64,000 nt of DNA from Candidatus Puniceispirillum sp. (GCA_013822015.1 PNJU01000006.1:7231-71230), one strand, 5' to 3'; shown: positions 8,253-61,665, numbered from the stretch's first letter. Program-made: numbers and translations. Notes: generated by a model not told the origin, from the letters alone.

Positions 8253-9764
8253 GTGTCACAGTCAATTCCGGAATTTGGAAAGGTTCGCGCGTTCCTTTGG
8301 CCAATCCGCTCTAGTGAGGCAAAGAAGTTCTTGCCCATTAGTCTCATCATGTTTTTTACCATCTTCAATTACACCGTTCTTCGTAACTCCAAAGACGCCT
8401 TTATTATGACGGAGGCGGGGGCTGAAGTTCTTCCGTTCCTCAAGGGCGGTGTGGTGCTTCCGTGCTCACTTCTTTTGGTGGCAGCCTATACAAAACTTGC
8501 AAATAACCTCTCCCGAGAACGCCTCTACTATGTGGTTGTCCTCTTTTTCTTGAGCTTCTTTGCCCTCTTTGGAGCGATTTTACACCCCTACCGTGATGCG
8601 GTTCAAATGTCAGGCGAGACCATTGCCCACTTCAAGACCGCTTACCCCCACCTCCAACACATCTTTCCACTTTTTGGGGTGTGGATTTACACGGCCTTTT
8701 ATGTCTTTGCTGAGCTCTGGGGCGCGGTTGTCTTAAACCTGTCCTTTTGGCAGTTCGCCAATGAGGTGACACGCACCGTTGAGGCCAAGCGCTTTTACTC
8801 CATGTTCGGTTTTATCGGCCACTTGGCCCTGATTGCGGCGGGATATACCGTGGGCGAAAACTGTAAATTCGATGAGGGCACCATGTCCTGTGAGGGGTAT
8901 GTGCGAGCAACCGTGACCGTGGTGCTCATCGCGGGCGTGATGATGCTGAGCCTTTATTACTGGCTGCACCGGGCTGTTTTGACGGATCCAAAGTACTACG
9001 AAGGTGCGGGGCAGCTTGTGAAGGGTGAGTCGCGTAAGTTAAAGCTGAGCTTGATGCAAAGCATTCGCTACATCCTGTCATCTCCGTACCTCGGCCTTAT
9101 CGCGACCCTTGTCTTCAGCTACGCCTTTACCATGAACCTGCTTGGCATCATGTGGAAGAAGCAGCTGTCTATTCAGTATCCCACCACAAGTGCATACGCA
9201 TCCTTCATGGGCAGCTTTTCCATCTATACGGGCATCACCACCGTGACGGTGATCTTCTTCTTCAAGGGAATTGTGAGCCGTTTTGGTTGGCGCGCGGGGG
9301 CCCTGGCCACACCCATTATTCTGTTTATCACCGCCGTGGCCTTCTTCTCGTTCCTGTTCTTTAAAGCGCAGCTGACTCCCTTCATGTCCCTCATGGGCAC
9401 AACGCCACTGATGATGGCGGTGCTTGTCAGTACGCTGCAGCAGCTCCTGAGCAAAAGTGCCAAGTACTCTCTTTTTGATCCCACAAAGGAAATGGCCTAC
9501 ATTCCCCTGGATCAAGAGCTTAAAATCAAAGGCAAGGCTGCAGTTGATGTGACCGTTCACCAGTTTGGAAAAGCCGCCGGAGGATACGTCTCCGGCCTGC
9601 TTCTTGTGGTGCTAGCGGCGGCTGACCTGATGGTTATTGCCCCGTATCTTGCGGTGGTAATTCTGGTGGCGATTGTTCTTTGGTTTGCGGCTGTGAAGGC
9701 CTTGAACAAGATGTATCACATTCAGTTGGCGAAGCTGGATCCTGGGGCACCTGCTCGGGCGTAA
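8253..9764 (+). CDS. tlc: Nucleotide transporter of the ATP/ADP translocase (TLC/NTT) family
   Basis: FNYTVLRNSKD, FYVFAELWG, EAKRFY, KSAKYSLFDPTKEMAYIPLD, KGKAAVDV; about 12 TM; substrate specificity not determinable by eye. Confidence 0.95.
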   Translation: MSQSIPEFGKVRAFLWPIRSSEAKKFLPISLIMFFTIFNYTVLRNSKDAFIMTEAGAEVLPFLKGGVVLPCSLLLVAAYTKLANNLSRERLYYVVVLFFLSFFALFGAILHPYRDAVQMSGETIAHFKTAYPHLQHIFPLFGVWIYTAFYVFAELWGAVVLNLSFWQFANEVTRTVEAKRFYSMFGFIGHLALIAAGYTVGENCKFDEGTMSCEGYVRATVTVVLIAGVMMLSLYYWLHRAVLTDPKYYEGAGQLVKGESRKLKLSLMQSIRYILSSPYLGLIATLVFSYAFTMNLLGIMWKKQLSIQYPTTSAYASFMGSFSIYTGITTVTVIFFFKGIVSRFGWRAGALATPIILFITAVAFFSFLFFKAQLTPFMSLMGTTPLMMAVLVSTLQQLLSKSAKYSLFDPTKEMAYIPLDQELKIKGKAAVDVTVHQFGKAAGGYVSGLLLVVLAAADLMVIAPYLAVVILVAIVLWFAAVKALNKMYHIQLAKLDPGAPARA

Positions 9765-10908
9765 TGCTTGGCGGAGCCGAGTAAGGTTGAGGAACATAGG
9801 GTGTGCCGTACGCCATGGGCCAGCTTTGGCCTAGGCTGTGCGGCGCAGGCGTGGTTGGCCACTGGGGCGGTTGTGCATAATAAGGTGCGCTGTACCCCGT
9901 GGGGATCCCGTATCCCTGGGGTGCTGGTGTGCTGCTGGGAGGCGTCCAATAGGGTTGGGGCGCAGGGTAGTACGGGCTAGGCGCGTAACCTGGGTGCGCC
10001 GCCTGCACAGAAGGCGTGGGTGAATAGGGCGTTGGCGACTTACTCAGGTGAGGCGGCGGCGCGGGATCCGCGTGCAGTCCCCAGCTCCCCGCCATGTCCG
10101 GCCCTTTGCGAATCTGAACGGGGGATGAGATTGGCATACCAGAGGCGCGCCGGACTGTCTCCAAGCCAGTTTTACGCTTTTCAGCTTCGAAAATACTCGT
10201 GCAAGCAAGTGTTGTATCTTTGATAATGGAAACTTCCACGATATCACCTACCTGTATATTGCTGGCCTTGAGTGTCTCAATAAACGTCGGAATGGGATAG
10301 GCCTCCCACATGGCAGGGCTGCGCCCCAAACCCGCCACGAGTCCTTTGACGAAATAACCATTGAGCACCTTTCCCTCTATCGAGGCGTAGGAATGATATC
10401 CACGTCGTTTAAGGGCCTCCAAGACCTTCCTGTGCTCAAGGATAATGTTATCAATGCTATGCAATCGGCAGTAGAGAGCTGCAGCGGTATCAGTGATCAC
10501 GAGTTCCGTGCGCTCAATAGACCCCTTTTCTTCCCAGAATGTGAGAATGGTGCGCACGAGCGTGGGAGATTCTCCCACAAAGCATGCTCCTGCCGCGCGA
10601 AGAGTATTGCCCAAGGGCCCATAAAGGCCAATGTCCTTGGGAGAAGTTCCCTCATTGGGGGTTCGTAAGTACTCACCAGCTGAGCGCAGGCCGGCGCCTA
10701 TGCCCCAGGACATGGACTCTCCCAGATGCCCAAGAAGGCTGGTGTTTTTTGGTGAACTTGAGGGGATATCCTGTTGAGTGCTCTCAAACTGAGCGATGCG
10801 CGCAACTAACTCCTCAACAAGGTCGTCGCTGGCAAGGCTGGGGGCGCAGTGTTGGAGGCTGACGAAGGCAGCTGTGAGCACAAAATGGGCGAAGATCTTT
10901 CTTGACAT
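9634..10908 (-). CDS. Exported hypothetical protein with Pro/Tyr/Gln-rich disordered C-terminus
   Basis: GGAGG RBS 5 nt before ATG 10908; signal peptide MSRKIFAHFVLTAAFVSLQHCAPSLA|SDD; 3' end overlaps the translocase gene by 131 bp. Confidence 0.75.
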   Translation of the reverse strand: MSRKIFAHFVLTAAFVSLQHCAPSLASDDLVEELVARIAQFESTQQDIPSSSPKNTSLLGHLGESMSWGIGAGLRSAGEYLRTPNEGTSPKDIGLYGPLGNTLRAAGACFVGESPTLVRTILTFWEEKGSIERTELVITDTAAALYCRLHSIDNIILEHRKVLEALKRRGYHSYASIEGKVLNGYFVKGLVAGLGRSPAMWEAYPIPTFIETLKASNIQVGDIVEVSIIKDTTLACTSIFEAEKRKTGLETVRRASGMPISSPVQIRKGPDMAGSWGLHADPAPPPHLSKSPTPYSPTPSVQAAHPGYAPSPYYPAPQPYWTPPSSTPAPQGYGIPTGYSAPYYAQPPQWPTTPAPHSLGQSWPMAYGTPYVPQPYSAPPSITPEQVPQDPASPTECDTSCSRPSQPQTKEQSPPELPPQDTGQ

Positions 10909-10990
10909 ATGGGCCTCCAAGGCTTGTTTTTCCCATAAATCTTAACGCGTTAGTTACGTTTGGGGAAGGCCATATGGGGAAAGAGGTAAA

Positions 10991-60734: not shown

Positions 60735-60777
60735 TTTACCCTAGGTGTATAGAATGCAAGTAACATGGTGCACCAGG

Positions 60778-61665
60778 TCAATCAATCACATTCACCCCGC
60801 GCGTCCGAAGCTGGTCCTTAGCGTTTTGAGTGACGCCGGGGCACATATAAACGTTGAGGGATGTGACCTTTTCAAGGGCCAAGACGCCTTTGTCCGTGAC
60901 GCTGGCACATCCGCTCACGTGAATGGTCAGAGCGTTTTTGAGAGAACCGAGCCCTTCATCGGTGATGGCGCAGCCGCTTAAGCTCACTTCTTTTGGGTTT
61001 TGGAAGTAGGCAACACCTTTGTTTGTGACGCGGGTCCAGCTGACATCAATGACCTCGACGTCTGACAAGTTTTTCATGTCCTCGTCCGTGATAGTCACGC
61101 ACCCCATGAGATTGATGTGTTTGACCCCTTTGAGGGCAAGGAGAGAGTCGCTGGCAAGGCGCGTGCACTGGCTGAGGTTGATATACTTGATTGCCTCAAT
61201 GGCAAAAAGCGTCGCGCCCGTGATATGGTCGCACCAGCTGACATCTAAGCGCTTGACGTGCTTGAGAAGTGCGACCCCTTCGTCCGTAATGTTGCACCGG
61301 TTTATGTTCAGATCATGGGCATTTACAAGATGCACAAGATCCGCGTCGCTCACGGTTTTGTCTCGGCACAGGATGGGAACGGCGCGCATGTGCTCATTGA
61401 GTAACGTCCGGGCAACGCGGGGAAGATCATCTTTGTTTGAGACCACAAGGCGGGTGTTGCGCGTACGCAGAACGGCAGCAAAGGTGGGCGCACTGGCTGC
61501 CGCTCTGCACATTTGGCGAAAGGTCGCAAGGGTAGCCAGGTCCAGGTTCAGGGCAATGCTGCGCAGTGCTGGGGGCGGAAGTTTTTCCAAGGGCAGGGGC
61601 GTCTGGCTGGCCTCGGCCCAGGGTATGACGGTGACAAGGGCAATGACCAGTAAAAGAGCTTTCAT
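60778..61665 (-). CDS. Exported F-box plus LRR protein (family 2, L5; 8 repeats)
   Basis: Signal MKALLLVIALVTVIPWAEA|SQ from ATG 61665 (start uncertain, weak RBS); F-box LEKLPPPALRSIALNLDLATLATFRQMCR; C-cap TQNAKDQLRTRGVNVID. Confidence 0.85.
   Translation of the reverse strand: MKALLLVIALVTVIPWAEASQTPLPLEKLPPPALRSIALNLDLATLATFRQMCRAAASAPTFAAVLRTRNTRLVVSNKDDLPRVARTLLNEHMRAVPILCRDKTVSDADLVHLVNAHDLNINRCNITDEGVALLKHVKRLDVSWCDHITGATLFAIEAIKYINLSQCTRLASDSLLALKGVKHINLMGCVTITDEDMKNLSDVEVIDVSWTRVTNKGVAYFQNPKEVSLSGCAITDEGLGSLKNALTIHVSGCASVTDKGVLALEKVTSLNVYMCPGVTQNAKDQLRTRGVNVID

Follow-up and report, generated by a model that had tools for sequence, protein, structure and literature searches.

A Ser/Thr-plus-acidic mature N-terminus on lineage-specific Sec substrates of an alphaproteobacterial genome: a candidate mark for host-directed proteins

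Introduction

In the Bacteroidetes, most substrates of signal peptidase I carry Gln at the first position of the mature protein (+1), where it is cyclised to pyroglutamate; this is the so-called Q-rule (PMC5837995, PMC10653852). In enteric Escherichia coli, the Aat/CexE system (PMC7943197) combines export by Sec, cleavage, a step that depends on the first residue and exit through a TolC-like protein, and in Rickettsia the protein RARP-1 is exported by Sec plus TolC (mentioned in PMC9992710). In this work we analysed the exported proteins encoded in a 64,000-nucleotide stretch of DNA filed as Candidatus Puniceispirillum sp. (GCA_013822015.1, PNJU01000006.1; from here on the window, positions 7231-71230 of contig C6) and in the source assembly as a whole (G000; 1.98 Mb, 18 contigs, 53% guanine-plus-cytosine, GC). 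A preliminary description of the window, made from the sequence alone, had pointed to an Ala|Ser cleavage junction shared by unrelated accessory proteins (the bar marks the cleavage site) and had proposed an undescribed two-step export route that reads the mature N-terminus.

The preference described here resembles the Q-rule in being specific to a lineage and to position +1, and in being statistical over hundreds of proteins. It differs in the residue, which is Ser or Thr and not Gln, and in that conserved (core) proteins are exempt (Ser in 9/73, 12%), whereas the Q-rule spans most substrates including the housekeeping ones. The order of events that we propose is like that of Aat/CexE; in that system, however, Gly at +1 is N-acylated by AatD and only one or two substrates are known, and Gly makes up 4% of the +1 residues of our accessory proteins. 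With RARP-1 there is in common an intracellular alphaproteobacterium, a eukaryote-like repeat protein, a Sec leader and the presence of TolC, but RARP-1 is a single substrate, and no N-terminal rule is described for it.

Known host-directed proteins are also related to the present case. Sec-dependent effectors are established in 'Candidatus Liberibacter' (PMC11414923), and a 63-kDa periplasmic protein of Holospora obtusa, which has a signal peptide, reaches the host nucleus (PMC9866348). Like the putatively host-directed proteins studied here, these carry plain Sec leaders; unlike them, no shared +1 residue or acidic signature is reported there in the literature searched. In Plasmodium, the PEXEL pathway (10.1101/2023.07.12.548774) also depends on a proteolysis that exposes a new N-terminus needed for export into the host cell, although it belongs to a eukaryotic parasite with another protease, motif and translocon, so that the likeness is an analogy only. 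Our search of the full-text literature on cleavage sites and mature N-termini retrieved no Ser/Thr rule at +1 and no +1 rule specific to a protein class. A review of the lineage published in 2025 prefers type VI secretion as effector route, considers the mechanisms poorly understood and mentions no +1 rule (PMC11909080).

Materials and methods

Genes were called with a purpose-written caller, which gave 1,770 genes in G000. Leaders were recognised with a heuristic that scores the charge of the n-region, the hydropathy of the h-region, a weight table for positions -3 and -1, and the length of the c-region; the residue at +1 is never scored. To count as type I, a leader needed a positive n-region and a hydrophobic h-region that is free of charge and 8 or more residues long; positions -3 and -1 had to be small, and +1 could be anything but Pro, which blocks cleavage by signal peptidase there. 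The start codon was the one yielding the best leader, the genome-wide cut-off was a score of at least 6, and the statistics left out proteins that had additional membrane segments, matched a lipobox or carried Pro at +1. All the cleavage sites given below are predictions of this heuristic. In the window and in the genome the leaders showed the type I features, with Ala at -1 in 92% of the accessory ones and Ala, Val or Ser at -3 in 87%, values that are partly imposed by the predictor.

Core proteins were defined as reciprocal best hits between G000 and G007 (934 pairs), and accessory proteins as those with no such match in that one genome. G007 is a complete genome from another family of the same order (1,838,212 bp, 39.7% GC). 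From G001, which belongs to the same genus as G000, 800 kb were taken (47.8% GC), and the first 800 kb of E. coli K-12 were processed with the same code as a control. Paralogs were collapsed by blastp clustering of the mature parts, which gave 264 clusters, 226 of them singletons. Leucine-rich (LRR) and ankyrin (ANK) repeats were assessed with phmmer.

Results and discussion

Ser and Thr at the first mature position

A Ser or Thr start combined with an acidic mature N-terminus is found on the lineage-specific Sec substrates of G000 and is largely absent from its conserved envelope proteins, and we consider it very probable that this signature is real. Of 328 predicted type I leaders, 123 (37.5%) have Ser at +1, 37 have Thr and 27 have Ala. 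Ser drops to 12% at +2 and to 9% at +3, and represents 6.2% of the proteome. When the leaders were divided by conservation, the 73 core ones had Ser in nine cases and Thr in two (15% together), the top residue being Ala (14/73), whereas the 255 accessory ones had Ser in 114 (45%) and either residue in 149 (58%). The two classes differ in Ser (Fisher, p = 1.3e-7) and in Ser plus Thr (p = 1.9e-11), and the contrast persists at stricter score cut-offs. It had been claimed from the window that housekeeping exported proteins differ from the accessory ones, with an equal Ser frequency as the outcome that would speak against it; measured genome-wide on an ortholog-defined core, the frequencies came out unequal.

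The same behavior was observed in the relatives. In G007, Ser was present in 10 and Thr in 4 of the 72 core leaders, compared with 59 for Ser and 91 for both residues in the other 166 (p = 6e-4 for Ser and 4.3e-7 for Ser plus Thr). In G001, Ser accounted for 31 of 86 leaders (36%) and Thr for 8. The 67 leaders of the E. coli control showed Ala in 20 (30%), Asp in 7, Gln in 5, Gly in 5, Ser in 4 (6%) and Thr in 3; since this distribution is normal, the predictor does not manufacture Ser. With respect to E. coli, the Ser frequency of the G000 core proteins is not significantly different (12% vs 6%, p = 0.25) and that of the accessory proteins is (p = 2e-10).

It could be argued that the heuristic, or its choice of start codon, creates the excess of Ser, because the predictor is home-made, the start codon is picked for the best leader and several sites in the window are ambiguous. 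We find this barely credible: +1 is never scored, both the control and the core of the same genome are normal, the effect is stable across score cut-offs, and a test that is independent of the site agrees. In this test, an Ala-Ser dipeptide just after the h-region was found in 61% of accessory, 29% of core and 21% of E. coli leaders, and Ala-Ala in 16%, 25% and 51%, respectively. In the control the heuristic recovered known sites such as those of SurA, DegP, Skp, PhoE and TolB. Nor do GC content or composition account for the rule, which is found in genomes of 40%, 48% and 53% GC, with Ser enriched at no position other than +1.

Another explanation is that the junction was inherited, either by shared descent or by shuffling of one portable leader cassette. 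Inside families the leaders are indeed nearly identical, for example in the F-box family, but between families they are widely different. After the paralogs were collapsed, the family-weighted frequency of Ser at +1 was 35%, singletons alone had Ser in 75 of 226 (33%), and over the 198 accessory families the values were 42.5% for Ser and 55% for Ser plus Thr. Thus the Ala|Ser junction is common to unrelated families, as had been proposed, and paralogy, which had been held to explain only part of it, accounts for little (Ser still 35-42%). All six Ser codons are used at +1 in G000 (32 AGT, 26 AGC, 18 TCT, 17 TCA, 16 TCG and 14 TCC), so that TCN and AGY codons both appear in roughly genomic proportion (AGY 47% at +1 vs 37% in the genome; 30% vs 33% in G007); all four Ala codons are used at -1, and Ser and Thr replace each other at +1 within small families. 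Given the six codons, the singletons and the presence of the rule in G007, which shares almost none of these genes, we consider an inherited cassette highly improbable. The residue seems instead to be selected as an amino acid, because its enrichment is position-specific, survives the collapse of families, makes use of every Ser codon, and is found at 40, 48 and 53% GC and in a genome with a single signal peptidase.

Anatomy of the mature N-terminus

In the accessory proteins the +1 position is occupied by Ser in 45%, Thr in 14%, Ala in 5% and Asp plus Glu in 4%, and from +2 to +8 Asp and Glu reach 20-29%, with Ser at only 8-12%. The net charge over +1 to +10 is -1.5 in accessory proteins and 0 in core proteins. 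Ser/Thr starts and acidity go together, since among accessory proteins the charge of the next twelve residues is more negative behind a Ser or Thr than in the rest, both in G000 (-1.9 vs -1.4, p = 0.003) and in G007 (-1.6 vs -0.65, p = 0.001). The Ser/Thr start and the acidic N-terminus form one composite signature. A CK2-like motif (S-x-x-D/E) was rejected, as Asp and Glu show an even distribution from +2 to +8 without a peak at +4.

Ser is also frequent at -2 (23% in accessory vs 3% in core leaders). Of the 106 accessory leaders with neither Ser nor Thr at +1, 22 show the arrangement A-[S/T]-A|X, which permits an A|S/T site two residues upstream; therefore, up to about 67% of the accessory leaders may carry the mark.

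According to a host-compatibility explanation, selection would strip from accessory proteins the first residues that are seen by N-degron ligases and aminopeptidases of the host, Ser and Thr being safe, and no bacterial reader would exist. It is in agreement with the scarcity at accessory +1 of Asp, Glu, Asn, Gln, Lys, Arg, Leu and Phe, none of which exceeds 5%, although the following positions are 20-29% acidic. In addition, when a bacterial toxin is delivered to the cytosol, its potency varies with its N-terminal residue as the N-end rule predicts (PMC2518864), relatives of G000 inhabit the host cytoplasm or nucleus (PMC9992710), and the Q-rule offers the precedent of an effect on stability (PMC10653852). 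However, Ala (5% in accessory vs 19% in core), Gly (4% vs 8%) and Val (3% vs 8%) are depleted two- to four-fold even though the classical rule counts them as stabilising. With avoidance as the only force an Ala-rich distribution would be expected, so that the Ser-rich pattern is left unexplained, as is the link between Ser/Thr and a more acidic N-terminus. Moreover, the F-box proteins with leaders in another family of the class have Met, Val or Lys in first place, in the few cases available. We regard host compatibility as a rather unlikely explanation.

Signal peptidases and outer-membrane routes

In G000, signal peptidase I is encoded by two full genes, at C1:191128-191790 and C15:12079-12834, the latter in a lepB-rnc-era arrangement, and there is a third S26 peptidase that is TraF-like and lies on a contig of 46% GC. 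Two full-length paralogs of signal peptidase I are also seen in the genus, and a single copy in G007 and in most of the order. A second signal peptidase as the general cause of the rule was rejected, because G007 has one S26 peptidase and yet keeps the rule. Since core proteins cut by the same enzyme have an ordinary +1, the constraint acts on the mature N-terminus, and the mark is not simply a demand of the peptidase.

This bears on the possibility that the mark has no dedicated function, in which case Ser would be the residue best used or most tolerated by the peptidase or in fast export, and young proteins with acidic, disordered N-termini would drift there while old ones stay ancestral. 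The -3/-1 profiles are the same in both classes (in part imposed by the predictor), Ser in the core is somewhat above E. coli (12% vs 6%, not significant), and accessory N-termini are hydrophilic and acidic, all of which fits with such a drift. Nevertheless, core proteins share the peptidase and have long diverged (65% median ortholog identity within the genus) without adopting Ser, the enrichment is confined to +1 (Ser 8-12% at +2 to +8), and the rule extends across 40-53% GC and all six Ser codons. We consider this explanation unlikely.

As to the outer membrane, each genome has three secretins. One is the Tad secretin CpaC beside CpaF, and the other two are orphans, of which one is MshL-like and the other is a lipoprotein with fused TPR repeats. 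A single ATPase has equal scores for PilB and GspE, below both cut-offs; a GspF-like platform comes with it, as do two pseudopilins and three small proteins that match no family. TssC of the type VI system was detected in 18 of 21 genomes, and VirB4-type type IV secretion was absent from G000 and from 19 of the 21. This inventory matches what is described for Holosporales, where Sec is accompanied by 'incomplete type IV pili' and by a type VI system in reduced form (PMC9992710). Three TolC-like (OEP) proteins are encoded in G000, one housekeeping, one of an RND pump and one of an AaeAB-like pump, and OEP proteins were found in 21/21 relatives. No Aat-like acyltransferase cluster was seen beside the three TolC-like genes (Pfam for the C12 neighbourhood; by eye for C2 and C10). 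Sec leaders on the substrates and TolC homologs are both present, as for RARP-1. The listing of secretion systems that had been suggested for this genome therefore provides possible exits, through type II secretion- or type IV pilus-like components, the three secretins or TolC, and none of them is tied to the signature.

The TPR-fused secretin is located at C7:49587-51476 of G000 (L174:5587-7476); its TPR part is N-terminal and pilotin-like, no pilus or secretion genes adjoin it, and a counterpart is kept across the order as the third secretin. Judging by its sequence, a flagellar P-ring protein also appears to be encoded in G000.

How the mark could be used

F-box proteins act only in the eukaryotic cell, and the preliminary description reasoned that a Sec leader on them implies a second translocation step. 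Described relatives of G000 live free in the host cytoplasm or nucleus (PMC9992710, PMC11909080), so that crossing the outer membrane would suffice to bring these proteins to host Skp1. The second step would concern only the bacterium's own outer membrane if the cell is free in the cytoplasm or nucleus of its host.

The mark may tag or protect proteins destined to the host. We tentatively favor, as a possibility with somewhat less than an even chance, that the Ser/Thr-plus-acidic N-terminus is read by a bacterial factor, for sorting or for a modification that precedes exit. After Sec export, signal peptidase would expose this N-terminus; a bacterial factor would recognise it and would either pass the protein to an outer-membrane exit or modify the N-terminal Ser so that the protein can leave. 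Such recognition would set apart some 200 proteins bound for the host from the roughly 70 that reside in the envelope. This reading is favored because the mark is composite and peptide-like, there is a need to separate the cargo, Ser is strongly preferred over Thr, Ala, Gly and Val, and Aat/CexE and PEXEL offer precedents. In its broader form, a linear post-Sec tag that is read or modified by a periplasmic or outer-membrane factor would sort some 150-200 unrelated effectors per genome, Sec and not the type VI system being the main route; of this form we are more doubtful.

Several points weigh against recognition by a bacterial factor. Neither a receptor nor a dedicated exit was found, nor a modifying enzyme, for which no systematic search was made, and the neighborhoods of the TolC-like genes resemble ordinary efflux or housekeeping contexts. 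One residue plus charge is little information, between 33 and 42% of the accessory leaders lack the mark, and the LRR_6 family encoded at 55647-61725 of the window is mixed and follows the rule weakly; the rule is therefore statistical and not absolute. The analogous Q-rule is not a sorting signal (PMC5837995) and stabilises proteins (PMC10653852). It should also be noted that our heuristic misplaces some known E. coli sites, such as those of FhuA and BamA, that the accessory class rests on a missing reciprocal best hit in one other genome only, and that the host and the cellular location of this assembly are known only indirectly. Of the two-step route that was originally put forward, the shared junction, the small part of paralogy and the contrast with housekeeping proteins stand, and the reading machine and the undescribed status of the route are conjecture.

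As far as is known, this is only the second +1 rule peculiar to a lineage, after the Q-rule, and no earlier one divides the protein classes of a single cell. The presence of Sec leaders on about 13% of the genes, on one third of the lineage-specific ones and on nearly all F-box proteins suggests that Sec-dependent export is a major route that has been overlooked. The mark also allows proteins that may be directed to the host to be picked cheaply, from the sequence of uncultured symbionts, and gives an entry point to the question of how intracellular bacteria move periplasmic effectors across their outer membrane.

F-box proteins and conservation in relatives

In G000, 17 of 18 F-box matches have a leader, with Ser at +1 in about 11 and Thr in 3. 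A homolog search with the F-box family of the window (12835-14202) gave 11 proteins, all of them with Ser or Thr at +1. F-box-like domains are present in 19/21 genomes of the order of G000 and in 0/14 control genomes, and a sampling of 150 other genomes of the class gave F-box matches at E <= 1e-7 in only 3. The search for loci of the F-box family among relatives returned two, both in one metagenome assembly of the same genus (isolate CAED1).

One genome from another family of the class (G042, about 37% GC) encodes F-box proteins with leader-like N-termini whose predicted +1 residues, in a few cases, are Met, Val or Lys. At its loci L186, L189, L194, L203 and L204, a frequent residue at +1 is Met, with acidic residues after it (S|MEE, A|MEV, S|MEQE), a pattern that looks as if a leader had been fused ahead of the original start codon. 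These small numbers suggest that Sec-borne F-box proteins are more widespread than the Ser/Thr rule, and the rule may be specific to the order of G000.

Between G000 and G001 only 14 accessory ortholog pairs were obtained, with 26-55% identity and sites that rarely align, which gives no power for judging conservation of the site. Across the two families, a patatin-like phospholipase is conserved (G000 C2:117844-118953, G007 613186-614763; 33% identity) and retains an Ala|Ser junction in both genomes (VFA|SQ and SYA|SK), so that it is a conserved candidate for a host-directed enzyme.

Junctions in the window

All 14 junction strings quoted in the preliminary description are present in the window, and the Ser junctions indeed come from about six families. 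Seven of the 12 Ser junctions were reproduced by the predictor, which is blind to +1; of the other five, four are ambiguous or have a lipobox-like alternative and one belongs to an interrupted gene. Of the two Thr junctions, LIA|TQ was reproduced and AHA|TQ is ambiguous, the site chosen by the predictor being CQA|KD.

On the minus strand, an accessory exported protein with no Pfam domain is encoded at 9634..10920; its likely start is 10908, with the leader at about 10831-10908, and SLA|SDD was reproduced with a score of 6.1. The C-terminus of this protein is a low-complexity tail of 150 amino acids rich in Pro, Tyr and Gln. Two paralogous F-box-like proteins with leaders follow on the same strand, at 12835..14202 (PF12937, 1.1e-7; IQA|SEL reproduced, with an upstream LLA|ST also possible) and at 14240..15661 (IHA|SEL reproduced).

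A tandem array of five paralogs with no Pfam domain occupies 30753..34347 of the plus strand. The predictor reproduced VMA|SNT (30753-31415), LLA|SDE (31445-32161), LLA|SSE (32250-32906) and LIA|TQ (32937-33659), and in the last member (33661-34347) it also picks LFA|SCD, although here a lipobox-like alternative exists (FAS|C). Next to the array, at 34499..35635 on the plus strand, there is an interrupted F-box paralog, with VHA|SEP in a leader fragment of 57 codons (34499-34672). Its reading frame meets a stop inside the F-box after HILSYLGDEDI and, beyond about 100 unrelated nucleotides, resumes at about 34790 with VCRRWREVL; the interruption looks like a small insertion or a decaying gene.

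Two further accessory exported proteins have ambiguous sites. The one at 43488..45170 (minus strand) admits SLA|SAC or the lipobox-like ASA|CEE of the predictor, and that at 45274..46338 (plus strand, likely start 45358) admits AFA|SAD or the ASA|DN of the predictor. The latter protein has a poly-Lys tail and terminates in KKKMDKKKKKKKKGRR, a stretch similar to a nuclear-localisation signal.

Five LRR_6 proteins with leaders are encoded on the minus strand at 55647..61725, of which that at 57807-58988 has in addition an F-box. AEA|SQT is clear and reproduced in the protein at 60778-61725, and VRA|STH is weak, with a long polar c-region and a low score. Among the other junctions of this group, the alternatives CQA|KD and AHA|TQ are ambiguous, and VGA|VG and VKA|CD have neither Ser nor Thr. 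Lipobox-like alternatives in the window are limited to the genes at 33661-34347, 43488-45170 and 57807-58988.

The housekeeping proteins of the window have the sites originally given for them: SFA|KE in the D-Ala-D-Ala carboxypeptidase DacA, which has a SPOR domain (42163..43485, minus strand), AHA|EA in a porin (50827..52154, plus strand) and SFA|AQ in a bacterial SH3 protein with an ortholog in the other family of the order (54551..55084, plus strand). For DacA, a predicted ATA|PS site was excluded by the Pro at +1. Near 51315-51363 the porin gene breaks into two frames that overlap; the leader belongs to the N-terminal open reading frame (178 amino acids), and the C-terminal one (279 amino acids) matches positions 139-309 of Porin_4, so that the split is either a frameshift pseudogene or an assembly error.

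The source genome

The window also encodes a TLC ATP/ADP translocase (8253-9764), a marker of obligate intracellular bacteria, and a probable SecY (2005..3348, plus strand; 447 amino acids), the candidate Sec channel for these leaders. The latter has at least 8 hydrophobic segments and is located between ribosomal-protein genes and adenylate kinase, and its identity is probable by position and topology. With its 2 Mb, its ATP/ADP translocase and its many F-box and LRR genes, G000 looks like a protist endosymbiont of the Holosporales/Caedimonadales type.

Predicted type I leaders are found on about 13% of all called genes of G000, and on 230 of the 698 genes with no match at all in G007 (33%), compared with 73 of the 934 core genes. 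This secretome is unusually large for a genome of 2 Mb.

Finally, contigs C11 (97.8 kb) and C14 (25 kb) have 46% GC, compared with 53% in the rest of the assembly, and look like a plasmid or a conjugative element. C11 encodes the TraF-like S26 peptidase mentioned above, together with leader-bearing proteins that have G007 orthologs.

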